A DNA stretch of 55,680 nucleotides from a virus (taxonomy: Duplodnaviria > Caudoviricetes), in IMG/VR virus record IMGVR_UViG_3300006483_000020, positions 1 through 55,680 of that record. One strand, written 5' to 3'. Below the pieces are notes generated by a model. That model was given only the letters and a program-made list of their open reading frames with translations. It had not been told where the DNA came from and ran no database searches. Below, one piece after another: positions 7,233 to 32,300 of the stretch. How positions within the stretch are numbered: position 1 is the first letter of the stretch; the number at the start of each line of letters is the position of its first letter. A program made the translations under genes and the position numbers.

Positions 7233-7736
7233 ATGAAACAATGCGAAACGTGCGGAAGTAGTGATTTTATGGTCCGTGGAAAGAGCGTTTGCCTTAAATG
7301 CTTCACCGGGAAAAAGACAGGGAAAATTAATATCGGAATCGATTGCGGAGTTAAAACCGGGCTATCGGTGTGGAATTCTGAAAGCCAATTATTCGAAGAA
7401 ATATCAACATTGAAGATCCACCAGGCCATTGATACCGTATTGGAATATCATCGCCTTTATGGGAAAGACCTGTTTGTCCGTTTTGAAGATGCAAGAAAAC
7501 GCCAGTGGTTCGGTTCTACAGGCAAAGAAAAATTACAGGGTGCCGGATCGGTAAAGAGGGATTCCAAAATATGGGAAGATCTCCTAAAGGACAATAAAAT
7601 CAATTATGAAGCAGTTGCCCCAAAAAACAACGCTACAAAGCTAACGGATGAACAGTTCTACAATATAACGAAATACACAGGAAGAACTTCTGTTCATGGC
7701 CGGGATGCAGCCATGCTTGTTTTCGGGATTAAATAA
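7233..7736 (+). CDS. RuvC-like (RNase H fold) Holliday junction resolvase with a short N-terminal Cys4 motif
   Basis: IGIDCGVKTGLSVW, VRFED and HGRDAAML catalytic-type motifs; CETC...CLKC at the N-terminus. Confidence 0.7.
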   Translation: MKQCETCGSSDFMVRGKSVCLKCFTGKKTGKINIGIDCGVKTGLSVWNSESQLFEEISTLKIHQAIDTVLEYHRLYGKDLFVRFEDARKRQWFGSTGKEKLQGAGSVKRDSKIWEDLLKDNKINYEAVAPKNNATKLTDEQFYNITKYTGRTSVHGRDAAMLVFGIK

Positions 7737-17369: not shown

Positions 17370-20300
17370 ATGCCACAAGATATATTATATTTCAATGATG
17401 GAAACGGAAACGTTAGACAAGTTCCGGCCAACAAGGTAGATACATTCAAGAAACACTTCCCAAAAGCATGGCAAGCTGAAGAATCGCAGTTGTCCTCAAT
17501 CGAGAGCCAAAAAGCTACGAAAAGCGAACAGGAAGGGAAAACAAAGATAACAGCCCCACAGGTCAATACAGTTGACATGAGCGCAATGGGTGGCGGTGTA
17601 TCTCTCACTGAAGGTAAACCGTTATCGGAAAGAGCATCGGATATTTATAATATTCACAAGGCTGATCCCGAAATATCTTTCCGGGCCAAGTACGGTGCGT
17701 ACAAGGAAGATCCATCGTTGTTCCGTGACACTGAAAATGATCCTTCGAGTACTCCGCTTACCTCCATCGCAAGCGAATTCCATAAAAAGAACAAGAAGCC
17801 TGGAGAAATGGAGAGCATTCAGGATTTCCTTACCAATACGGATCAAGGACGTGCGTTTGTCGATCTTGACAGTAAGAGGAATAAGTATTTTGCAGATCTT
17901 GACATTCAGTTAAATAAGGAAATTGAAAACCTGGAAAGCAGCATCCGGGAAAAAGCTACGGCAAGGCAAAAGCTCATTGAAAGACCTGTTCCCGGTACAA
18001 GGTATGGCGTTAATCCGCAATGGCTGTCAGCAGACGAAAGAGCGAGAATTGATGCAGCAAAAGCATTGGACGTTGAAGAAGCAGATAAGATAGCCACACA
18101 GGATGATCTTAACATCGCAGCACGGAACCTGGAAGAATTGAAGATGTTACGTGGAGCCGTCAAGGACAGAGATACGAATGCAGTTGCCCAATTCTTCAAT
18201 GAAGCCGGAAGAAGGCTTCCTAAATCCTTGTATAATATCGGCACGATGGGGTTTGGTGATGTCATAGAAGGACTTTCCCCAACCAAAGGCGGTAAGCTAT
18301 CAGCGCAATCGGAAAACCTTTTAAACCAGTACGCAGCACTTCACCAGGACGACAGGAGCATAGCGCAGGACATAGCACAGGGGGCCGTTGGATCTCTTGA
18401 ATTCATGGCGCAGTTTGCCGGTGCCGGCGGTGTTGTTGGTGGTATAGGAAAGAACATTCTGAAGCAGGGTGTGAAACAGGCAGCGACAAAAGGCCCGGGA
18501 AGGATGTTGAGGATCGCAGGGAAAGAAGTGTCTGAAACTCTCATGCAGACAGCTATCATGCCGTCAACAATCGCAATGGCTATCGAGAACAACGCACAGA
18601 ATCCGGGAAGCTTCCTTGATAGCTTTGCAAATGCCTATCTCTCCAACCTTGTTGAAGTAGGATCTGAACGTGTGGGTCAATTCATTCCAGGTCCTAAATT
18701 CAAACTCCCATCATCCGTACAGAAATTGCAGAAAGCCACAGGAATTGACGGTATGGTTGGTGAATTCCTGGAAGAACAGATAGCAACGGCAGGACATTCG
18801 GCTCTCGGAGACGGACAGGCAGAATGGAGCGATCTTATCGATCCAAGGCAACAACTCATTACAGCCGGTGTTGTTGGAATAATCCAATTACCTTACGCAT
18901 CCATCAACGCAGCAGGATACGCAGCCGGGAAGTTCAGGAACGTAAATCAGAAAAGATCGATCAATAAGGCGTTCACGCAGAACATGGAAGCGATGAATGC
19001 TGTTTTCGGCACAGACACCGAGCCAACGATAATGTGGCTTAACAACGCTATCGACCAGGCGCAGCAATCCGGTGAAGGAATTGCATCCCTCATGGCTTCA
19101 CTTGTCAATAAGGGAGAATTTGCCGAAGAACAGACAAATGCAATGTTAAACTACGGACTTTCCTATCTTGCTAAAAAAGGTTTGGAGACAGCAAAGGAAG
19201 AACAGATACAAAACGCACAGGCAGAAGCACAGCAACTCGCAGAACAGGCCGTAAACCCTGAAACAAACAGTATCATCCTGGCGACTGTTCCCGGAATGGA
19301 AGAACCTACACGAATACAGGGAGATGTTATCCTTCGTGAAGATGGATCCATCGATGCTTCCAAGTCGGGAGAGATCTATTACACCGATGCGGAAGGAAAA
19401 CGAAAGGTTATTGATCCCAGGTTTATTGAGATAGTCGAGAATGTTCCCGCAGAACAGGCCATTGAGGAGCTTTCAGCAATGAAGGCTGCCGATGTGGTAA
19501 ATCAACATGCTAATGATGAAGTGCGCCCATACGAAGCCGGAGAGCTTGTCAGATTCACTGCTGATGGAAATGTTTCGATGCTAGGACAGATCCAGGGTGC
19601 GGATGAAGCCGGGAATTACCAGGTTATCGTTGATGGAACACCTACACCTGTTATCGTAGAGCCAAGAATGATCATCAATGAGGACAATCTGCAAGGAGTT
19701 GACAACGGTGTTGTCGTTGACTACGCAGATGAAAAAGGAAACGTATTGACCGGTACCGTAGATGACATGAGTATCCGGGGTCATGGAGTTATCGTTATTG
19801 ATGGTAATGAAATACGTGTTGAAAATGTGATAGGAGTACATAGCGAAGAAGAAACACAAGCGCCTTCAACTATCATAACGTCAGAAAAAACACCCGAAAA
19901 TGAGGGTAGCACAATAGGGCAGACACCGCAAAATGTAACAGAAACGGCAGAAACGGAAGCAGAAAGTCAAAACGCTGCTGAAGTACAGGCTGTCCAGGAA
20001 TTTCCGAAAGACAAGGACGGAAACATTGATTACAGTAAGATAACAGACAATAACGCATACGTGGAAGCGTTGAGAAGCGAGTTTGGCGATGAAGCCTACA
20101 ATGTAGTCGATGATTACAGGAAAGCTGCTGAAAAGGCCCTGAAAAGCGTTGACAAGATAAACGATCCCATCAGGAAACGCAGGGAACAGGCACGCAGACA
20201 GGCCGAACTGGACAGGTGGAACAGCATGATTGAAGCCACACGTCCGAAAGCCAAGGCACCAACCTATGAGGAAGAATACAATCCAATACTGACAAAGAAT

Positions 20301-23300
20301 ACCCGTGAGCGTGAATCGCAAATGGGTGATTACCTTTCCTTGCGTGACTACCTGTTGAGAAACATAGGTACCGGGAAGCTCCGCTTCATGTGGAATAGCA
20401 GGGATGGAATAAAGGGATTGAAAGACGAGATCCTTTCTTCCAAGAATACGCAGATGGAGAGATTAAGGCGTATCGCATTCCTTGACAATAACGGATTCAC
20501 TCCTGAAACACTTGCCGAATTCATCAGCGACAACAACGGACAGGATATACCGGAGTTTTCAACGCTTGATGTGCAGGATATCAGGAACGAGATAAACGAC
20601 GTCCTCTTGTCGTTCGACACCCCGACTGACATGATTGAAGCTGCCGAGAAGCTTCGCAGGGATGACGTTAGCCTTGAAAGCTACATCGAACAGAATATTT
20701 CTCCCGATGATATAGCTAATTATGAAGCAAATGAAGCAAGCCAGGATGAATTATTATTAACTTTGCCGGAGCAGGAGGCACCGGACATTTCAGAACAAGA
20801 ATTAAACGAATATTATGGAACCGAAGGAAGAATTGAGAGTACTGAACGAACTGCTGACACAGAAAGCGGAATTCACGGAAGAGCAGAACAGGGAGGTCAA
20901 ATTCCTCTACAAGCTGCAAGTACTGGTATTGAAAAGACTGAAGAACGTGCAACCGGAGAACAAGGCACACGAGATAGCCTTGCAGAACCTGATCAGGAAA
21001 GAGCAGAACATGCCATTGCCGGATATGATAATCAGGAGGATAGAGCTACTGGAGCGGAACGCAAATACTCCGCAGGACAAATAATCAGCATTAATGGTGC
21101 TGATCACGTCATTTCAGAAGCCGGCACGTATGTTGGTACCAACGATCATTTCTATACCATTGAAAAAGACGGACAAACAGTTTACGAAGATATTACCCAG
21201 GATGAACTCGATAAGCTTGTAAGCGAAAAAACTACGACTGAACAACCATCCGTCCCTTCATACAACGGAGATATTGTCGATTATGCACGTAACGTTGTAA
21301 AGAACGAGGAAGTTAAACAGGAAGCAGCAAAAGTTGACACAAATCCGACCGATGCTCAAAAGGAATCCGGGAACTACAAAAAAGGACATGTTAACGTTCA
21401 GGGATTTGACATTACCATCGAGAACCCGAAAGGATCTGTACGTTCCGGAGTAGATGCCTCCGGAAAGAAGTGGAGCGTTGAAATGAAGAACCATTACGGC
21501 TATTTCAAACGCACGGAAGGGTATGATGGAGATCAGATCGATACGTTCATTGGCCCAAATCCTGAAAACAGCGCAATTTTCGTTGTTGACCAGGTTAATA
21601 ATAACAAGTCTTTTGACGAAAGCAAGGTTATGCTAGGTTTCAACTCTATTGATGAAGCCAGGGAAGCTTATTTGTCCAACTACGAAGCAGGATGGCAGGG
21701 GTTGGGGGCAATCACCGAAACAACGGTAGATGATTTCAAAAAGTGGTTGTATGATGGCGCAAAACAAAGGAAGGCGTTCAGCGAGTACAAAGAGAATAAG
21801 CCCGAATACGGAGCCAACAACAAGATCATCACCACAGACAGGTATAACGAACTGCGTGAGCAGATGCGCAAGAAGCTGAACAACCTTAACGTTGGTTTTG
21901 ATCCGGAAGTATTCTCCATCGGCGCACAGATGGCAATGTACCATATCGAATCCGGGGCCAACAAGTTTGCTGAATTCGCCAAGAGGATGGTTGACGACCT
22001 GGGCGATGCAATACGTCCGTACCTGAAAGCATCCTACGAAGGTGCAAGGGCCATGCCTGGAATGGAAGAACTTTCCAAAACGATGGATCCATATAACGAT
22101 GTGGTGGCCTTTGACGTGAATAAGAACTTTAATGTTCAATCTGAATACAAAGAACGAAAAGAGCAAATATCCAGGGAAATAGACGATCTTATAAAAATAA
22201 GGGATCAGAAATATCCAAACCCTGATATTGAGAGTCCAATGTCTCCCGAAGAAAAGGAATTGAACTCACGGATAAGTAAACTACAGAGCGACCGAAATCA
22301 ATTAGTTTTAAACAATAGAAAACAAAATGGACAAAAAGAAAGAAGCACAGAGACTATTGAAGCTGAAACAGAGACTATTGAAACAGCATCAGGAACTATC
22401 CGAAGTGAATCGGAAAATGTCGGAAATAATAAACAGCGAGCCGGCCAGGTAAAGGAAAAGGCAGCCGATCAGATCAGGAAAGTTGAAAGACTGCTTAACG
22501 AGATCGATCAGAAGCTTGCAAGCCTTAAGCTCTCCGATAAGGAATATTCAACCGAGGGTATAGCTGCGGATTATCCGATCAATGTACTTGCGAAAGGACC
22601 GATAAGGAAAGATGTTACCGCTTATGTGAAAGCAGTGGCAGCAATGACAGGACTGGATCATGACACGAACAGCAAGGGAAAGACGGAAGTTGTAAACATC
22701 AATATCGCACCGGCAGGGGGTAATGCAAGTTTTATCCTGTGGAGTAAGGCTAATCCGGAATATGGGGTTTATGTTTCCATTCCTTATGATCCCGATGTTA
22801 ACTCCGGAGGGTATTACGACAATTACAAAGTAAGAGATAATCATATCCTTTGGCGTGTAACAACGAAACAGAACAAGTGGAGAGGTTTATACAACCAGTG
22901 GTTGAAAGTTGATGCTACGGCCCAGGAGATGGCAGAAACAATCCTTAAGGGTCTTGATCAACACTTGAGATCCATCGGATTGCAGGAAGAAGTAAAGCCG
23001 GTAATAAACAACATGCCGGATGCAGAGAAGAATAAAAAAGTAAAGAAAAAAACTTCCAAAAGCGACATTCCATCATTATTTGATATTTTCGATGAAAATA
23101 ATTACGATAATGTATCTGATATTCAGAATAATTCATTAACTTTGGATGAAGGTAATGAAGAAGTTAAACCAGTTAACAGCAACCAAAATGACGAGCCGAG
23201 AAGAAGAAACGAAGAAACGGACAGTAGCCTGGGAACAGGAACACGGCAAGAAGTTGGAAGAACTGAACAGGGAGGAATGGATCGAAGCGGTATCGCAGAT

Positions 23301-26300
23301 AATGGCCCTGACAGAAGCGGAAGCGGAAGAATACCTGGATCACCTGATCATGCAGAAAAACTTCAGCTAAGAAATACCAACAATAACCGTAACGAGAGAG
23401 GCAAAGACTACTCTCCAAAATCCCCCAAAGCCCGGTTTAATGCAAATATAACCGCTATCAAGCTCATGCGAAAGCTGAATGATAGCGGAATAACTGTGCC
23501 CACTAAAGAGCAGATGGAAACCCTGCGCATGTATAGCGGATGGGGTGGCCTGGGTACATTCTTCGACAATGATACCACGGAAAATCAAACCCTAAGAACT
23601 TTATTAAGCGATGAAGAATATCAAAACGCAAGCGATAGCGTGAGATCAGCATACTATACTCCTGCGGACGTGATTGATTCTTTATGGGATATTGCCGAAC
23701 GGTTAGGATTCAAAGGCGGTAAGGTGCTTGAAAGTAGTGCAGGGATAGGCTCTATCATCGGATCAATGCCACAGAATATAAGCGACCGTTCCACTATCGA
23801 GGGCGTAGAGATTGATTCAGTAAGCGGGGAGATCCTTAAGCTGTTGTATCCTGATGCGAAAATACATGTACAGGGTTTTGAGAATACCAATATCCGAAAC
23901 GGAAGTGTTGACCTTGCAATCACAAATGTTCCCTTTGTTACCGGTCTCAATGTGTATGATCCGGTAGATAAGGACCTATCCAGGAAATTCAAGAACATTC
24001 ACGATTTTGTAATAGCAAAGAACATACGAAAACTCAAAGAGGGAGGAATAGGAATATTCATCACTACCAAAGGAACGCTTGACAGCAGCAAAAAACTGCG
24101 TGAGTGGATTGTTTCCAACGGATCCGCTGACGTTATAGGTGCTTTCAGGCTGAACAATGAAACCTTTGAGGGTACAGGTGTTACAAGCGATATTATTGTC
24201 GTTCGCAAGAGAGTTGCCGGAAAGGTCCATGACGGAGCAATAAATGTGATTGAAACAACAATTGAAAGAAGCTCGGAATATGAAACTGATGATGCAAAAT
24301 GGGTAAGGAATAAAGGTTATGTTCGTGAAGTAAAGGAGGTAGATCTTATCTACAACAAATACTTTGCCGACAATCCTCAATTCATGGGTGGTGAAATGGC
24401 TTTCGGATTCGAGCACGGAGACACATACCGTCCCGCTTCGATCAGCTTATACCCAAAAAAAGGTATAAACCAGAATGAAAGACTTTACGAATGGGTAAAA
24501 CAGTTTGATCCGCTAAAGGATGAAGTACCGGTAGATGATAAACAAAAGGTCCGCGAACTGGAAGAAACCTCAATAAAAGAGGGGCAGTTGTTCATTGATA
24601 GCAAAGGAAACATAGCGATATCCTCACGTGGATTGGCTGAAGATCCCGGAATAAACAGCAACAAGGTTAAAGGCCGTCCGAAAACCGAAGTACTGAAAGA
24701 CTACAACTCCATCAAGGAGTCCGTTGATGCGCTTTTGAAATATCAGATAGACAGCCCGGATGATAGCGGACTTAAACCTCACCTTGACAAGCTGAATAAG
24801 GCTTATGATGATTTTGTTTCCAAGTACGGACAACTCAATAATAACACATCAATATCATGGCTTCGCAAGGATGTTGATTTTCCTGCGATTGCAGCACTCG
24901 AAAAGTATAAGGAACATAAGTCTATCGATGGGAAGAAGACAATAAATGTAAACAAGACACTTGTATTCAAGCAAAGGGTTATCGGATATAAATCAAAGCC
25001 GGTTCCGAAAAACATCAAGGATGCTGTTGTCGCAAGTGTTTACGAGTATAATGATATAAACATACCTTACATTTCTGAAGCACTCTCCATTTCAGAGGAT
25101 AATGTAAGAGAACAGATCTTAAGTGAAGGACTAGGGTTCTCAAATCCACAGACAGGGGCAATAGAAATCCGGCACCGTTACCTTAGCGGGAACGTTAGGG
25201 AGAAGCTTAGAATTGCCAAAGACAGCAACGTTAACGGTGAGTACGATGCAAACATCATGGAGCTTGAGAAAGTTGTTCCAATGGATATCCCGGCACACCT
25301 GATCGACATGACAATAGGGTCCACATGGGTTCCTCCGTCCATTTTTGAACAATACTTCATGGACAGGTACGGTGTCAGATTAAAACTACACCAGACAGAA
25401 GGAGCATGGGTCATTACCCCAGGAAGCAAGGGAGGGCAATACAACGACAAGAACAGGCAGTTGGGTGTTTATAGCGAAATGTTCCAGGAGACGATATTTG
25501 GCGATGAGCTCGCTTATGCAGCCATGAATAACCGCAACGTTGTATTCAAGAAGATAAGAAAGAACTACGATGGATCACAGGAAACGATCACGGATAAGGA
25601 AGCATCGGCAACAGCAACAAGAAGGATATCGGAGATCAAGGCTGACTTTACGGACTGGTCGCAGGAATTGTTGACTTCAAATGAGGAGATTGCTGAAAAG
25701 ATAATGAAAACCTACAATGACAAATTTAACGCCATTGTTCCCATGTCAATCGATGAAAAGTTTATTCCGGAAAAATTCGATGGAGCAGCTACATTCATCA
25801 ACCTTTATCCGCATCAGCTTAAATCAGCAGTCAGAGCCACAATGCAGCCACTATTTCTGGCGCATGAGGTAGGTACCGGGAAAACCTTCACAATCATATC
25901 CGCAGCAATGGAAATGAGACGTGTGGGTACCGCAAAAAAACCAATGATCGTTGTCCAGAATGCAACGATAGGGCAGTTTGTGGCAGAAGCAAAGACCTTA
26001 TACCCGAATGCCAAGATCCTGGCCTTATCCGACAGCGACAGGGATAAGAAGGGCCGGTTGGCTTTCTATGCAAACATAAAGTACAATGATTGGGATATGG
26101 TTATTATCCCGCAGAGCACGTTTGACATGATCCCGGACAGCCCGGAACGGCAACGAACTTTCATTGAGGAAAAGATAGACGAGAAAATAAGGGTTATAGA
26201 GGCAATGAGGGATGTTGACACAGACGGCAGAATTGTTAAACAGATGGAGGATCAGCTTGAAGATCTATATGATGAGCTTGCAGGAAGATCTTCAAAGAAG

Positions 26301-29300
26301 AAAAAGAAAAGCGCAGATAGAAGCATAGCTGTAGATAACGCAGGGGCCAGGGCAAAGGAACAGCTTGACCGCAGGACGGATGATGTGCAGTACTTTGATG
26401 ATCTCGGAGTGGATGCGTTGCTCGTTGATGAAGCTCACGCATACAAGAAGTTGGGTTATGAAACAACGATGGCCAGGGGCGTTAAGGGAATCGACACAAG
26501 CCGGAGCAAGAGAGCAGCAGGATTGTATATTAAATCCAGGGCAATACTTGAAAAGAGTGGATGGAAGAATTTCGTTCTTGCTACCGGAACGCCAATCACA
26601 AATACAGCAGCAGAGTTGTGGACGTTTATGAGGTTCTTGTTACCGAAAGATACGCTTATCGAAAATGACATGTATTATTTCGATGATTTCGCAAAGAACT
26701 TCGGGAGTATAGATCAGATGCTCGAATTCGCTACAAGCGGTAAATACAAGGAGAACACTCGTTTTGCAAAGTATATCAACCTGGCCGAGCTTGTTCGTAT
26801 ATGGGCATCGGTCAGCGACACCGTTCTTACGAAGGAAGCCGGATACATCAACGATAAGGTACCTGTAATGGAAACAGGACAGGCACAAGACGTTTACCTT
26901 GAACAGTCGGATACTCTTGTCGATGTAATGAGAGCCGTAAGGAAAAAGCTTGAGGAATTTGACAAGATGTCGGGTAAGGAAAAGAAGCAATTTAGTTATA
27001 TCCCCATTGTAATGTACGGCATAGCCAAGAGAGCCGCAATAGATACAAGACTGATTGACAAGAATTCCCCCGATGAGCCACTAAGCAAGACAAACAAAAC
27101 AGTTGACGAAGTTTTGAAGTCATTGAAAGATACCAAATCCTACAACGGGACAGTTGCTGTATTCTGTGATAACCAAAACCGGAAAGACGATGGAGTTGTA
27201 ACGTTCAACATATTTGAGGATATAAAGCAGAAGTTGATCGACAAGGGTGTTCCCGAAAACCAAATCATCATCATGAAAAGCGGAATGAATATCAAGCAGA
27301 AACAGAAGATATTCGCAGACGTGAATGAGGGGGTTGCACGTGTGATCATGGGAAGCACAGAAACATTGGGTACCGGTGTGAACATACAGGAAAGACTTCA
27401 CACTTTAATCCATATGGACGCTCCGGATCTTCCAATGCAGTACACACAGAGAATGGGGCGTATATTGAGACAGGGCAATCTGCATAAGGAATGGAATAAA
27501 CCTGTTCGTGTGCTCCGTTTTGGTGTTGTCGATTCTCTTGACGTCACAGCTTATCAAAGGTTGCAAACCAAGTCCAATATCATTGATAGTGTGATGGACG
27601 GAAAAACAATCATGGCAAATGCAATGGAGAATAGGAGTATCGAGGAATCCTCCGAATCAGGGTTCGGGAATACCGTTGCACAGCTTTCAGGAAGCCAGTA
27701 CGCATTATTGAAAAACCATGCCGAGAAAGAGCTTCAAAAACTTTTAAGCAAGCGTAAACAGCACGAATACGACCAGATCTACATTTCAAACCAGGTCCGC
27801 AGGAATGAGGGTATTATAAGGGCCAATGAATCCATAATAAAGGATGCAAAGGATCGCCTTTCAAAGATTAAATCGTTCTTCCCGGAAGGAAAGCCAAAAA
27901 GCCTTAGTATAGCAGGAAATAAGATTGAAGGAAAGATTTCCATTGAAGAAGCATTAAAAGAATACGTTAACAAGCCGGTTAACGAGTTTGTTGAGAATGC
28001 ACGGAAAAATACCTCATACAAAACAAGCATCCTTCCGTTTGAAGTTAAGGCCGACAATGTTGTCTTTACTGTTAATGTAAAGATCACACGTGATTCAGCT
28101 TACGATGAAAAGGCAAAAGGGTTGAGAATATCCATGCGGAGAAACATATCGTACAGCTCCGAACAGCTAAACATGGAGGAAATACCAGTTTCCGGAGCCT
28201 ATGCACGTGAAGCGATAAACGATATTCTTGAAAATGTCATACCTGGAAAGGACGATAGCGAGAGAATAGAGTATGTGGAAAGATCTTCGAACAGGTTAAG
28301 GGCAGAAAACGTGTCGATGAATGCCAGGAAAGGCAAGAAGTTTGAACTGGAGGATGATCTTCGTGAAGCTGAAAAAAAGGTAGAGGAATATGCCGTTTTG
28401 ATGCAGAAGGAACTTGAGGAAAAAGAAAAGAAATACAATGAGAGGGGATCCGGTAAGGACGTTGATATTGAATCCATTGAATTAGAGGACGAGGAGATAG
28501 AATCGGACGAAACAGACACAGGCTATAGAGAGGATAAAGTCAAACTTCGCCTGGATGATGAATCCGATTTGGAGGAAACATTGCCCGAAAAGATCACTGT
28601 TGACGGAATAGAAAGATCCACCATCAATAGTGATGGTAAACGTATTGCACCGACAAGAGAAGGCATTATTAACTTTTGGCGGTGGTTCGGCAATTCAAAG
28701 GTGGTGGACAAACAGGGCAGGCCAATAGTCGTTTATCATGGCACAAAAAATATATTTGATGCTTTCGATGAATCAACTAATAAATACACCGGATTTTATT
28801 TCACCAATGATCCTGAATTGGCTGATAGCTTTGCAGGTGGGAATGATGCTGATCCTTATAATGGAACAGGAAATATAATGCCTGTTTATTTAAGACTTGA
28901 AAATCCTGTAATTGAAGATTTTGAAAACGATTCATGGGATGGGATGGAAAAGGTTATCAAAAAAGTGAAAGCATCCAACCATGATGGATATATAGGCAAA
29001 AACGTTTATGATGTAGAATTTATAGCTAATCAATATGTAGCTTTCAGCCCGGAACAGATCAAATCAGCTATCGGCAATACCGGCTCTTTTGATCCTGCGA
29101 ACAACGATATTCGCTTCCGTATGGTTGACGAATCCGGCTTTTACTCCACCGTTGAAGACGCTTTGGAGAATATCAGACAGGAGAAAGGCACACCTGAACA
29201 GTTCAAAGCCATGTTGCTCAAAAACGGAGCAAAACAGGCTGAACTGGACTGGATGGGATGGGATGATTTTGCAAGCGACATTAATGTCGTGAGCAAATCC

Positions 29301-32300
29301 GACATTCAGGACTGGATCAACCAAAACCGGATCGAGATTAAGGAAGCTCAGAAGGGAAATAGAATCAAGGAAATAAACGAAGAGTTTGAAAAAAAGAAAG
29401 ATGACTGGGTTTATAATGTTGCTTATGATGCTTACAAGAATGGTGCTGACAGAAACAAAGCTCTCTTTCATGCTGAAAATATCAGGAACGCTGTTTCTTC
29501 GAGGGATAAAGATCAGATTAATGAAACAGCAGATGACTGGAATTATTTAAGCAAATACAACAATCCGGATGAAATAGACCTTAATGAAATTCATGATATA
29601 GAAGAAGATCATATGTATCAGCAAGATTCATTTGCTGAAGAAACAAAATTCTCTCAATATACTCTCCCCGGTGGAAAGAACTACAAGGAATTGCTGCTGA
29701 CGATGCCTATCAGGGTTAAGGCCATAGATGAAGTTACGGAATTACCTTCTGGTTATGAATATATAAAAGATGGAACAAAGTGGGGGGTTATTCCCGTTGA
29801 ACAAGTACATGCAAGGCCATTCTCAGGATTACACGACACAAAGGAAGCTGCAATGAAATCTGCAATCGAAAAGATTAATCGGATGTCAGTACAGAAAGCT
29901 GAAGAAAATGCCTATAAAGATACTTTCAAATCCTCCCACTTCGAAGAATCAAACATTCTTGCTCACGTCCGTTTCAATGAAAGGGAGGTAAATGGTGAAC
30001 GTGTCTTGTTCCTGGAAGAAATTCAATCAGATTGGGCGCAGAAAGGGAAGAAGGAAGGGTTTAAACGAGATAATGTTATTCAGGCAGAAAAATCTTATGA
30101 AGAAGCAAAGGCCAAACTTGATGAAATTAATAACGAGTTGGAAGATGTTATTAAGCAAGCGCAGGATATTGGACTTCCTGTCGGTGCAAGCAGTTCAGAA
30201 TGGAGAAGTTTCACATTAGGTAATTTCAAAAATGAAGAAGTTTATCGGATTGAATATAAGTTGGAATCTGTAAGGAACAGCAGGGAATGGGATGAATACA
30301 AGTCTATGCTTGATGAAATAGCAGATAAGCAAAGAAAAATAGGCGAGAAAAGGTTATTATTAATAAAAGAAGCTAATGAGCAGGAAGAAATAGTAGAAGA
30401 AAGAAAAGAAAACATTGATAGGGAGAAAAGTTGGGGTGAATTACACGGTGTTCCCGACATGCCTTTCAAGAAAACAGATCAATGGGTAAACCTGGCACTC
30501 CGCAGGATGATGCGTTACGCAGCCGAGAACGGTTTTGATCGCATTGCCTGGACCACAGGAGAGCAACAAGCAAACAGATATGACCTTAGCAATCAGATTG
30601 ATGAAATTGAAGTGTCAAATGCAGGAAAGGACGAAGGATACAGGATTTACTTTAAAAAGGGTGATTATGTCCATAACTCTAAAATAGTTACTGAAAGCGA
30701 ACTTCCTGATTTTGTAGGTAAAGATTTGGCAGGTAAAATAGTTGCCGATAATATACCTGAATTCAAATCGAAAACATACTCCGGCCTTGATCTTAAAGTT
30801 GGCGGTGAAGGGATGAAAGCGTTTTACGACAATATTGTTCCAAAAGCAGCTAAGAAATTAGGGAAGCCATTTGGAGCAGAGGTAGAAGCAATTGAAATAC
30901 CTAAAATCGGAACACAACAATCCATTCCGGTAACTGATCTTATGAAAAAGACAGCGTTACAGGGAATGCCGATGTTTAGAAAATCCGAAGGAAAGGAAAA
31001 GCCGACATTCAAGGGAGATATTGCTAAATTCGCCAGTGAAATGGCAGAGTGGAGCAAGGATATTAGCGACAGTGATTACAATGATGGATTGCAGAGGATC
31101 ATTGAGTTAGCTAAAGCCTATGACGAAGCGTATTCTCCACAGTTGAAATTGTGGGCTGCATACGATCTTGTAGATGAAATAGACCAGGTATTTTCAGGTG
31201 GTGAATTCAAAACGGTGGCCTTGTCGAGTAGAAGTGCAATGATTAATTCGATGCGTAGTCATGGGTTAAGTGAGGATCAGGCCAACAAGCTTGAGAAAAG
31301 CAAAGCTAAGGTAATGGGGGCCTATTACGCAAGTAAAGTATTTATCAATATTGCAGAAAATAAAACAGGTGCGGATATTATAGGCACATGGATCCACGAA
31401 AACGCTCATGATTTTAACAAGAATAATTGGGATAAAGTCGTATCTTTGGAAAGTAAAATAGATGAATCAGTTATCGATAACTATTTGCCCGGAAGCTATA
31501 AAAATGATGATAAGGCAGACAAGATTGATGAACTTGTTTCATTCGTTGCCGATGAAGTCATGTTTGGCAATGATGTTTACGATTTTGGCGATGCGCAAAA
31601 CGATGTAATTGATTTAGTTGAACAATATTTAAACAAAATAACCTATGGACGAATTAGTAAAAGTCGTATTGACAGATGGCGAAGGGGATCAGCAAATGAG
31701 AATACACTTGCAGATAACCAAGGAAGCGGAGCAAAGAGCTATCGAACTGATGCAGTCAGAACCAAAACCGATAAGCAAGCAGAGACATTGCGACCTGGTA
31801 CTTCAGGCAGCGGAGGAATTTCCAGTAAAGGAGTAAGGCTAAAATCAATTTCCGATGTGGCAGACAGTGTTAACTCAAAAATGTCTGAAATACTTCGGAA
31901 GGAATACGATGTAAAATACAATCAATTCTTTACCCGCTTCAGGGAAGCGTGGGAAGATACCCATTTGCCGGTTAAGAATTTCCTGGACCTGTTACGAAAA
32001 AATAATGTTGAAGTAGCAGAGTACAACGATTTTTACAAACAGGCTACCCACCTCCAGGGGAAAAATGATGCGCAGTTAAAAATCTTCAAAGACACGTATC
32101 AGCATCCCATCACCCTTGCCATAAATGCAATTGAGCAAAAAGGTTTCTCATACCGGGATATCGAAAACTATGTGTTTTCCAAGCATGGTATAGAGAGGAA
32201 TGAATACATGCTTAAGCAGGAAGCAAAGGAAGAGGTTGATAAAATGGCAATAAATGTGCGCAATAAAAGAATGCAGTCCAATTCGTATCTGAAAGCAATC

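Follow-up and report, generated by a model that had tools for sequence, protein, structure and literature searches.

A giant polyvalent gene of a Bacteroidota-type phage probably carries small +1-frame protein genes at its inter-module linkers

Does a giant phage gene hide smaller genes in the linkers between its domains? The window (the whole stretch of DNA that we analysed, 55,680 nucleotides) contains an ORF of 17.7 kb on the + strand (17370-35021, 5,883 amino acids), followed by the portal gene from 35063. The initial annotation had proposed that four small ORFs are overprinted on its linkers. The giant protein has Pfam matches to InPase (1.9e-58), ART-PolyVal (6.5e-23), and LPD38 (1.3e-27), and also to SNF2-rel_dom, ResIII, and Helicase_C; a match to LPD14 falls below the Pfam cut-off, and an N6-methylase-like module lies after position 23370. 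With so many unrelated conflict-type domains, LPD families among them, in one phage polypeptide, it belongs to the polyvalent proteins, known from phages and conjugative elements, via InPase, ART-PolyVal, LPD38, and the SNF2 helicase (Iyer et al., 2017, PMC5512222). The terms "overlap," "frameshift," "linker," and "low-complexity" are absent from the main text of that paper, and the concept as described there does not include nested genes, whereas the giant gene here seems to carry them. The record of a related Bacteroides phage contains a DarB-like annotation.

All four ORFs exist on the + strand as had been claimed, wholly within the giant gene and in another frame. They are o1 (20815-21084, 89 amino acids, in the linker before the InPase domain), o2 (22327-22452, 41 amino acids, K/Q/L-rich), o3 (23188-23370, 60 amino acids), and o4 (31645-31836, 63 amino acids, between a HExxH-containing region and the C-terminal part that bears LPD38). 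Their start coordinates are 1 mod 3 and that of the giant ORF is 0 mod 3, which places all four in the +1 frame. The third was listed as 23146-23370 (74 amino acids), and 23188 is an internal in-frame ATG of that ORF. The description of the host frame as a G/R/T/S-rich linker also held: over the four ORFs, G+R+S+T make up 0.37-0.51 of the residues, versus 0.22 in the rest of the giant protein, and the hydrophobic share is 0.11-0.15, versus 0.31. The 13 most GRST-rich 60-residue windows of the whole giant protein all lie at o4, o3, or o1.

The mere openness of the +1 frame is within chance. Compared with synonymous-codon shuffles (n = 500), the giant gene has no excess of +1 ATG ORFs of at least 40 amino acids (14 versus 13.98 ± 2.92), and its longest +1 ORF is not unusual (89 versus 95.2 ± 20.3). 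Given the host amino-acid sequence, the probability that the +1 frame is open is 0.10-0.26 across the ORFs. What does exceed chance is that ORF, composition, and codon usage coincide. By codon usage, the four ORFs top the 47 alternative-frame open stretches, and o1, o3, and o4 are the only places where the alternative frame outscores the host frame.

One check that the initial annotation had suggested was frame-specific conservation in homologous giant genes. We slid 292 windows of 60 amino acids along the giant gene and compared all three frames with every fetched locus. In only 6 windows, which cover 23130-23429 and 31590-31889, did the +1 frame score above the host frame, and the +2 frame was never the best in any of the 292. 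On both sides of o3 and o4, conserved domains continue in the same host frame. In control clusters, pairwise differences peak at the wobble position of the host frame (e.g., 0.041/0.426/0.108). We also counted, on minimum-spanning-tree edges of at most 25% divergence, the changes that are synonymous in the alternative frame and nonsynonymous in the host frame, and the reverse; in six control clusters the share of the former was 0.10-0.25.

For o3, the +1 peptide finds matches in 22 of the 80 metagenome loci (E between 1e-7 and 1e-11), versus none for the host-frame linker. Compared with its counterpart in L079, it keeps 29/75 residues in the +1 frame and 15/75 in the host frame, with 47/31/32 differences (of 75) at host codon positions 1/2/3. 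Among 73 hits to the o3 family, 71 are nested, always in the host+1 frame; the host ORF is open across 71 of the 73 copies, and the small frame is open in all 71 nested copies. The ATG and the stop are retained in the copies that we inspected (14 distinct ORFs from 22 loci). Family-wide, pairwise differences by position (0.401/0.370/0.534) are largest at the +1 wobble, and changes that are synonymous in the nested frame and nonsynonymous in the host frame outnumber the reverse by 100 to 23 (expected share 0.45, p 1e-16). In-frame ATGs also occur at 23146 and 23155, but Met1 of a free-standing protein (G322) aligns to the Met at 23188 (E 5.5e-17). This free-standing form is a single occurrence, 42 nt after a type III-like restriction-modification (methylase/helicase-nuclease) operon, and we found 95 database clusters of the o3 type.

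For o4, the +1 frame aligns without gaps to two relatives (L007 and L008) at 52% identity. Identity with L007 is 32/63 in the +1 frame versus 14/63 in the host frame, with 44, 21, and 17 differences (of 63) at the first, second, and third host codon positions. The start and the stop of o4 are retained in relatives as well. L007 and L008 differ from each other at 3 residues in the +1 frame and at 8 in the host frame. Family-wide, differences of 0.245/0.177/0.490 are again largest at the +1 wobble, and the two classes of substitution stand at 5 versus 0. An HMM built from free-standing and database-called members has its sole match among the window's 951 open stretches at 31642-31833 (E 6e-22). 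Free-standing copies were found in 5 places in 4 of 170 genomes, where the other frames are closed. By eye, the o4 product gave the impression of a ribbon-helix-helix or antitoxin-like DNA binder, but sequence searches did not support this: 13 members had no Pfam match at E ≤ 0.01, and there was no PDB-sequence match at E < 1.

These comparisons show that purifying selection acts on the +1 frame at 23188-23370 and 31645-31836, where the giant frame is kept open but can otherwise vary. The window's own copies were compared with relatives at about 50-57% nucleotide identity, and from these relatives we infer that selection may also act on the branch of the window itself. In the window, the o3 and o4 stretches are the sole matches to profiles built from the free-standing forms, and both products belong to families that are also found as ordinary free-standing genes in bacterial genomes; the families have no Pfam, PHROG, or PDB-sequence match. 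As judged from sequence, then, at least these two of the four ORFs are genuine conserved protein genes, invisible to standard annotation. The best explanation, which we consider quite probable, is that the window comes from a temperate tailed phage of a Bacteroidota-type host whose giant polyvalent gene carries small protein genes, nested in the +1 frame, exactly at the inter-module linkers. At o3 and o4, the G/R/S/T-rich "linker" arises because the gene for an E/K/L-rich helical protein is read one base early. The small genes would be the older reading; the giant gene would have extended its own frame across them, and a swallowed gene would now act as its linker. The free-standing copies are few and could be secondary escapes rather than ancestors.

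The claim that hidden genes shape the linker thus stands for o3 and o4, but for o1 and o2 we found nothing alignable in either frame, neither in the fetched loci nor in further homologue searches, and they remain candidates. It is quite possible, if somewhat short of an even chance, that these two (and not o3 or o4) are chance open frames in a purine-rich, T-poor linker that has few stops in any frame and yields an E/K/L-rich +1 reading by composition. The probability of an open +1 frame given the host protein is 0.22 for o1 and 0.26 for o2, the global synonymous-shuffle null is satisfied, and neither has a homologue in any search (for o2, no match among 1.84 billion representatives). Also, the clusters at the equivalent linkers of relatives have no +1 preference (62 versus 62 for c30, equivalent to o1; 72 versus 89 for c15, equivalent to o2). 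The weakest of the four is o2, which is of low complexity, and another open stretch, 28729-28875, has a higher alternative-frame codon score. On the other hand, o1 and o2 resemble o3 and o4 in codon usage, start context, and composition. When the 47 stretches are ordered by alternative-minus-host codon score, they take 3rd and 4th place, right behind o3 and o4. The window's real genes score 0.07-0.27 per codon; o1 reaches 0.176 in the +1 frame, more than any of the 70 controls from alternative frames of other genes (maximum 0.088), and o2 scores 0.099. The ATGs of o1 and o2 lie 3 and 5 codons past the preceding +1 stop, versus at most 5 codons in 7 of 43 controls, and the composition of the host frame over them is like that over the validated nested genes. 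Finally, o2 matches c15 with an hhalign probability of 75% (P 2.5e-5).

How would the nested genes be expressed? The initial annotation proposed internal promoters, on the basis of TAnnTTTG-type boxes before three of the ORFs. The boxes are indeed there: TAACTTTG lies 50 nt before the ATG of o1 (20758-20765, where it reads L-T-L in the host frame) and 44-51 nt before ATG 23188 (23137-23144, where its TAA is the stop at which the open +1 stretch of o3 begins), and TATCTTTG lies 197 nt before the ATG of o4 (31441-31448), all on the + strand. Nevertheless, the promoter reading was not supported. Taking the Bacteroidota promoter as −33 TTTG / −7 TAnnTTTG, we found 48 occurrences of TANNTTTG (TAnnTTTG) in the window, versus 52.97 ± 7.62 expected, and no TTTG upstream of either TAACTTTG box in the sequence inspected. 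In relatives, a count of 15/36 boxes stems from a few lineages; among non-redundant starts of embedded ORFs, 3 of 46 have the motif upstream, versus 1.4 expected. The boxes are neither enriched in the window nor conserved in relatives.

The translation starts are more informative. In Flavobacterium johnsoniae, the initiation region is A-rich from −14 to −11, with A at −3 and −6, little structure, and no Shine-Dalgarno sequence (as described in PMC6847099). The nested starts show this signature. Across 31 non-redundant starts of the embedded families, the stretch from −20 to −1 contains 51% A and 14% G, versus 29% and 28% for 3,000 control +1 ATGs; A reaches 71-81% at −14 to −12 and 77% at −3. 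Compared with shuffles, the start regions have no excess of folding (z −0.03 to 0.86). We ranked the 280 alternative-frame ATGs of the giant gene by a start-context score trained without the window, and those of the four ORFs came 1st, 8th (o2), 16th, and 23rd (o1). The best of all 280 is o4 (31625-31644, + strand, with A at −14, −13, and −12). The region before ATG 23188 (23168-23187, + strand, with A at −13, −12, −6, and −3) scores above the contexts of 23146 and 23155. In all four ORFs, the first ATG comes 1-5 codons after a +1-frame stop (1-4 codons in most relatives), and the context is A-rich and of the Bacteroidota type; we propose that the small proteins would be translated by independent initiation at their own ATGs on the mRNA of the giant gene.

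If instead the conserved +1 frames were remnants of small genes that were swallowed in a gene fusion and are no longer expressed, their conservation would reflect the past. Free-standing homologues exist, and the window's o4 departs from its family at several nearly invariant positions (R48, T49, F52, and M56; alignment A5), both of which favour this reading. We consider it improbable because the recent differences among nested o3-family copies favour changes that are synonymous in the +1 frame, because every nested copy is open and the inspected ones keep ATG and stop, and because an A-rich context of the initiation type is retained. Another possibility is programmed +1 ribosomal frameshifting, which would yield truncated isoforms of the giant protein that end in an o3 or o4 domain, not separate proteins. 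Frameshift isoforms are common in phage structural genes, and the small ORFs do lie on the same strand, in the +1 frame, and within one long mRNA. This seems very improbable because the +1 stop is so near the ATG that there is almost no room for a shift site, and because the conserved ATG corresponds to Met1 of the free-standing homologues. Conservation of an RNA structure or a DNA site within the gene has nothing specific in its favour and is most improbable, as the variation has a three-base periodicity in the +1 phase, amino-acid replacements are conservative, protein-coding homologues stand free in unrelated DNA contexts, and the start regions fold like shuffles.

Returning to independently initiated nested genes, do they travel with the neighbouring domains as modules, as had been suggested? 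For the o3 type this was borne out. The o3 product, a conserved acidic protein, is encoded immediately 5' of the methylase module, and an o3-type ORF is directly 5' of that module in 72 of 80 homologous giant genes, which were picked by the helicase alone; the 72 comprise two clusters, c8 (21) and c11 (51), that are joined only by hhalign (probability 85%). The small products may act with the adjoining module, perhaps as the inhibitors, antitoxins, or chaperones that the initial annotation had suggested, and the o3 type would be tied to methylase-helicase modules. More tentatively, and with rather less than even confidence, we suggest that linkers in this widespread family of giant polyvalent genes are as a rule functional out-of-frame small genes: the giant gene would have grown by reading through resident genes that are still expressed from their own starts as module-specific partners (such as the o3 type with methylase-helicase (anti-)restriction modules), and several unrelated nested families would fill the same slots across lineages, always in the +1 frame.

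Our literature search found no paper that describes such nested genes in a giant phage gene. The closest parallel is the lambda spanin pair Rz/Rz1, in which a small gene (Rz1, in the +1 frame) likewise lies wholly within a larger gene on the same strand and is often missed by gene callers. Of 528 two-component spanin systems reported in PMC6139136, 182 are embedded, 228 overlapped, and 118 separated. Here, by contrast, a multi-domain gene of 17.7 kb houses several nested genes that come from unrelated families and occupy one inter-domain linker each. Constraint acts on the nested frame, with the host frame as passenger, and the nested genes lack membrane and lipoprotein signals and have no known connection with lysis.

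Overprinting is also known from phiX174 (B/K/E) and from many accessory proteins of RNA viruses, where the novel frame is usually a small accessory protein born inside an older gene. There, as here, one stretch of DNA gives two proteins in different frames, and one reading is compositionally odd and disorder-prone. In our case, homologues of the small proteins also stand free, and it is the large gene that yields the odd, low-complexity reading, as its linker; the direction would therefore be reversed. Nor is there an obvious pressure to compress the genome in a phage of 55 kb.

If the pattern holds, a hidden set of small co-inherited proteins accompanies the giant polyvalent anti-defence proteins, and models of how the giant proteins act, mature, and are regulated are incomplete. 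It would also be a clean natural case in which the reading of a large gene is the passenger and a small gene carries the constraint, and it suggests a route for gene fusion in which the swallowed gene serves as linker. Gene callers forbid fully nested genes. Together, the o3 and o4 families comprise roughly 100 clusters at 90% identity in public data, yet Pfam and PHROG have no family for either, and copies inside intact giant genes in effect go unannotated. For such nested genes, ORF-length tests on a single genome are powerless, and it is frame-specific conservation, codon usage, and start context that are informative.

The virus record carries genes for RecT, a portal, a terminase, an Ig-domain structural protein, and an integrase, and its ORF at 17370-35021 (+) encodes a protein of 5883 aa. 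This giant protein is a polyvalent protein, because Pfam identifies InPase, ART-PolyVal, LPD38, SNF2-rel_dom/ResIII, and Helicase_C matches within it. (A homologue in a related Bacteroides phage record is labelled 'DarB-like antirestriction'.) The initial annotation proposed that four small genes are hidden in the +1 frame of the giant gene, over stretches where the giant protein's own frame (the host frame) turns into linker. As an observation, this is confirmed. The four ORFs (o1, 20815-21084; o2, 22327-22452; o3, 23188-23370; o4, 31645-31836) are present and are all +1 relative to the giant gene, except that the o3 ORF opens at an ATG at 23146 and the ATG at 23188 is internal and in frame. 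Over the four ORFs, the G/R/S/T content of the giant frame is 0.37-0.51 versus 0.22 elsewhere, and its hydrophobic content is 0.11-0.15 versus 0.31 elsewhere. The hydrophobic content of the +1 peptides is normal (0.27-0.34). The 13 most GRST-rich windows of 60 aa in the giant protein are all located at three of these ORFs.

The length of these ORFs is not unusual. The giant gene has 14 +1 ATG ORFs of at least 40 aa, versus 13.98 ± 2.92 in 500 synonymous-codon shuffles; its longest +1 ORF is 89, versus 95.2 ± 20.3 in the same shuffles, and block-wise shuffles gave +1 ORFs that were longer still. Given the host amino-acid sequence, the probability of an open +1 frame is 0.10-0.26 for the four ORFs and 0.01-0.035 for four longer control stretches. 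A test of ORF length on one genome is powerless here, even for o3 and o4, which prove to be real.

Relatives of the giant gene are more informative for o3 and o4. Segments of the giant protein retrieved 10 loci, the helicase segment alone retrieved 80 metagenome loci (with 10-kb flanks), and the o3 profile retrieved 48 viral contigs; loci from bacterial genomes were added to these. Close DNA relatives were absent from the GenBank phages, where blastn of the region gave only short InPase-type matches, and tblastn of GenBank phage records with o3, o4, and P0019 gave no match. Windows of 60 residues from the giant gene, 292 in all, were each searched in the three forward frames against every fetched locus. 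The +1 frame outdid the host frame in 6 of them, exclusively at 23130-23429 and 31590-31889, and the +2 frame was best in none. Conservation across homologous giant genes is thus frame-specific at o3 and o4; around o1 and o2, none of the three frames had a match in these loci. The claim of hidden genes stands for o3 and o4, which have both frame conservation and free-standing homologues; o1 and o2, for which no search found a homologue, are candidates.

Of the 80 metagenome loci, 22 are matched by the +1 peptide of o3 (E 1e-7 to 1e-11) and 0 by the host-frame linker peptide over o3. Every one of the 22 matches is shifted ahead by one frame relative to either the helicase frame or the local host frame. 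One relative (L079) shares 29/75 residues in the +1 frame versus 15/75 in the host frame, and the differences number 47/31/32 at host codon positions 1/2/3. Homologous ORFs keep the ATG, mostly 1-4 codons past a +1 stop, and their stop position is unchanged. A profile search with o3 led to 95 clusters of 52-91 aa, and the subfamily that is 60-78% identical to the window begins at the Met equivalent to 23188. Searching all loci with an HMM yielded 73 matches to the o3 family. In 71 of these, the small ORF is nested in a large ORF, at host+1; the remaining two are a single place in a bacterial genome (G322) where the gene is free-standing. There (L107:3160-10120), a 60-aa o3-like gene lies 42 nt past a helicase-endonuclease gene (ResIII + RE_endonuc), which is preceded by genes for a Schlafen/AlbA_2 protein and an N6_N4 methylase. 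This gene set resembles a type III restriction-modification set. Searched against the window, the G322 protein matches 23140-23367 alone (E 5.5e-17), with its Met1 aligned on the Met at 23188. The o3 profile was found in 1 of 401 genomes in a sample of the order and in 0 of 401 in a sample of the phylum.

The initial annotation also expected such genes to travel with neighbouring domains as modules, and for the o3 type they do. A second cluster of alternative-frame open stretches, c11, lies at o3's linker and aligns to o3 with an hhalign probability of 85%. Among the 80 loci picked by helicase, 21 have the o3 family itself (cluster c8) and 51 have c11, and therefore an o3-type nested ORF lies just before the methylase module in 72 of 80. 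The functional lead for the o3 type is linkage only, to this methylase-helicase module and, in G322, to the end of a methylase/helicase-nuclease operon. This linkage fits a putative role as a partner or regulator of methylase-helicase modules. (In one locus, L088:4092-7448, the host frame that surrounds the o3-type ORF stops at 7448 and the helicase is in another frame; either the giant gene is split there, or the assembly has a frameshift.)

The o4 peptide has an ungapped alignment to two relatives, L007 and L008, in their +1 frame (52% identical, 68% positive, E 1e-14), and the host-frame linker over o4, searched alone, has no match in the fetched giant-protein loci. Over 189 nt, amino-acid identity to the relatives is 32/63 in the +1 frame versus 14/63 in the host frame. 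The differences number 44/21/17 at host codon positions 1/2/3 and are therefore located on the +1 wobble. L007 and L008, which are 96% identical over o4, differ from each other at 3 residues in +1 and at 8 in the host frame: five changes are synonymous in the nested frame and nonsynonymous in the host frame, none is the reverse, and three are nonsynonymous in both. In both lineages, o4 starts with an ATG one codon past a +1 stop, and the stop shifts by one codon. A profile search led to two protein clusters, of 67 aa and 65 aa; the latter has 16 members, some of them annotated as 'hypothetical protein' in Dysgonamonadaceae MAGs. Free-standing o4 homologues occur at 5 places in 4 of 170 Dysgonamonadaceae genomes, with the other frames closed and the flanks non-coding. 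Their neighbours include transposases, an integrase, and an AbiEii fragment, and no gene resembling the giant protein was found around them. The o4 profile was found in 0 of 401 genomes in the sample of the order. Conversely, an HMM from which the nested copies were left out has a sole match among the 951 open stretches of the window, at 31642-31833 (E 6e-22). A ribbon-helix-helix (RHH) or strand-helix-helix DNA-binder fold for o4 was a by-eye impression that no analysis supports.

As a control, we screened every +1 or +2 open stretch of at least 45 codons within host ORFs of at least 1500 aa, in 143 loci that include the window and some overlapping cuts of one contig. This gave 4877 stretches in 446 clusters, of which 199 (121 in +1 and 78 in +2) have at least four members. 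For each cluster, identity in the alternative and host frames was compared over identical bases. Ordinary clusters have an alternative-frame identity of about 50-75% versus 70-99% in the host frame. Alternative-frame identity equals or exceeds host-frame identity in nine clusters, all in +1: c8 (69 loci; 48.4 versus 28.2), c11 (51 loci; 59.9 versus 43.3), c136, which is o4 (51.6 versus 22.6), c15 (62.1 versus 55.2), c82 (83.0 versus 78.7), c24, c178, c183, and, from one pair only, c185. Codon-position profiles, in which the differences in control clusters peak at the host wobble, bear out c8, c11, c24, c136, c178, and c183; c82 is not confirmed by its profile. Changes that are synonymous in the alternative frame and nonsynonymous in the host frame outnumber the reverse in c8 (100 versus 23, p 1e-16), c11 (109 versus 62, p 1e-8), and c24 (39 versus 22, p 0.004). 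In six control clusters, the alternative-synonymous share is 0.10-0.25.

Homologous giant genes also hold nested +1 families that have no counterpart in the window, namely c24/c178 (a single family; hhalign 97.5%), c183, and the o3-like c11, and in each the +1 frame is more conserved than the host frame. (Examples of these ORFs are L111:2754-2957, L062:4386-4619, L030:4131-4364, and L026:6957-7235.) In the loci checked, several of them precede the InPase match by a few hundred nt, a position that corresponds to o1's linker in the window. A general rule behind nested genes in giant-gene linkers is plausible.

For o1 and o2, searches of the fetched loci in all frames, of proteins, and of viral contigs found no homologue: o1 had no match in the homologous-protein search and no relative in viral contigs, o2 had 0 matches among 1.84 billion representatives, and o1 aligned to seven clusters of relatives with hhalign probabilities of at most 2%. 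The evidence for them is indirect. By a score trained on the 26 other genes of the window, the +1 frames score 0.219 (o3), 0.18 (o4), 0.176 (o1), and 0.099 (o2), where the window's real genes range over 0.07-0.27, 70 controls taken from alternative frames of other genes have at most 0.088, and one further stretch of the giant gene has 0.137. Ranked by alternative-minus-host score among 47 alternative-frame open stretches, the top four are o4, o3, o1, and o2, in that order. The alternative frame exceeds the host frame in 6 of 583 sliding windows, of which four are at o3 and one each at o1 and o4. Also, the first ATG is within 5 codons of the preceding stop in all four ORFs versus 7 of 43 controls. 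At the equivalent linker in relatives, c15 aligns to o2 (hhalign probability 75%, P 2.5e-5), but both are low-complexity, and c15 has no frame preference (72 alternative-synonymous changes versus 89 reverse, not significant). At o1's linker position, coordinate comparison places c30, in L029 only, 243 nt before the InPase match versus 183 nt for o1, and it has no frame preference either (62 versus 62, not significant). It is roughly a toss-up whether o1 is a real nested gene, and o2 is somewhat less likely to be one. In a contig from run X4, 26 other letters stand in place of 22135-22325 (an in-frame net change of −165 nt; within 22134-22327), and likeness resumes exactly at o2's ATG, with A kept at −3, −6, −12, and −13 of the swapped leader. 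As a single low-depth metagenome contig at 85% likeness, this is no more than a hint. Among the 40 listed of 714 variant places between the window and contigs of four sequencing runs, which include relatives 94-99% identical to it, none is within o2-o4.

How might the nested genes be expressed? The initial annotation invoked internal promoters with TAnnTTTG boxes. The octamer boxes do lie where it placed them, but the window has 48 copies of TANNTTTG versus 52.97 ± 7.62 expected, and a box lies upstream of nested ORFs in 3 of 46 non-redundant regions of relatives versus 1.4 expected, so that conserved internal promoters of this type are not supported. No TTTG was seen upstream of the boxes in the sequence inspected. 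A box precedes o3 homologues in 15 of 36 upstream regions, and those 15 come from a few lineages. The TAACTTTG/TACCTTTG boxes translate to L-[TP]-L in the host frame, and the boxes might instead mark this motif. Right before the o3-type ORF (23090-23145 in the window, and in relatives), the host frame often has a short D-L-F or L-F-D type motif (...PSLFDIFDE... in the window, GATTTGTTTG in many relatives). Both may be motifs of the host protein, such as processing sites, rather than promoter elements.

A clear translation signal is present at the starts themselves. Upstream of 31 non-redundant start codons from the validated families, A makes up 51% and G 14% of positions −20 to −1, versus 29% and 28% in 3000 control +1 ATGs, and A reaches 71-81% at −14 to −12, 77% at −3, and 74% at −5. 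An A-rich initiation region, with A across −14 to −11, is reported for a member of the Bacteroidetes without Shine-Dalgarno pairing, where positive determinants of initiation are A residues at −12, −13, −3, and −6 (PMC6847099). The A-rich region of the nested starts matches this initiation region. With a matrix built leaving the window out, the 280 alternative-frame ATGs of the giant gene were ranked: 31645 (o4) is 1st, 22327 (o2) 8th, 23188 (o3) 16th, and 20815 (o1) 23rd, and the other o3 ATGs, 23155 and 23146, are 67th and 224th. The start regions have hardly any structure, with folding energies over 60 nt of −0.5 to −4.5 kcal/mol, as in shuffles. Because the promoter boxes are unsupported and the starts have a clear translation signal, we favor internal initiation: the small proteins would be made from the giant gene's mRNA.

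For the four peptides and their family members, Pfam and PHROGs had nothing at or near threshold, PDB sequence profiles had no match for the o3 or o4 families, and the ESM Atlas homologues of the nested families are in unnamed clusters only (0.75-0.80). Nested phage genes are known, as for lambda Rz1 within Rz, and spanin pairs can be embedded, overlapped, or separated (PMC6139136); Rz1 is likewise a small gene nested in a larger phage gene. We found no description in the literature of nested genes in polyvalent proteins, although supplementary files outside the search may hold relevant annotations. The main text of the founding polyvalent-protein paper has no 'overlap', 'frameshift', 'linker', or 'low-complexity' (PMC5512222), and no title among the papers listed for overlapping or embedded genes of DarB or antirestriction was relevant.

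Two other features of the giant gene deserve mention. Its longest non-host ORF is antisense (21633-22166 (−), 177 aa, in an open stretch of 210 codons) and has a codon score of 0.064, which is unremarkable among antisense stretches. Also, within 28550-29130, position 28550 is linked directly to 29121, and 28559 to 29130, in contigs from two sequencing runs that belong to different studies. The missing 570 nt (190 codons) take out most of the ART-PolyVal domain in frame, which looks like presence or absence of a module among close relatives.
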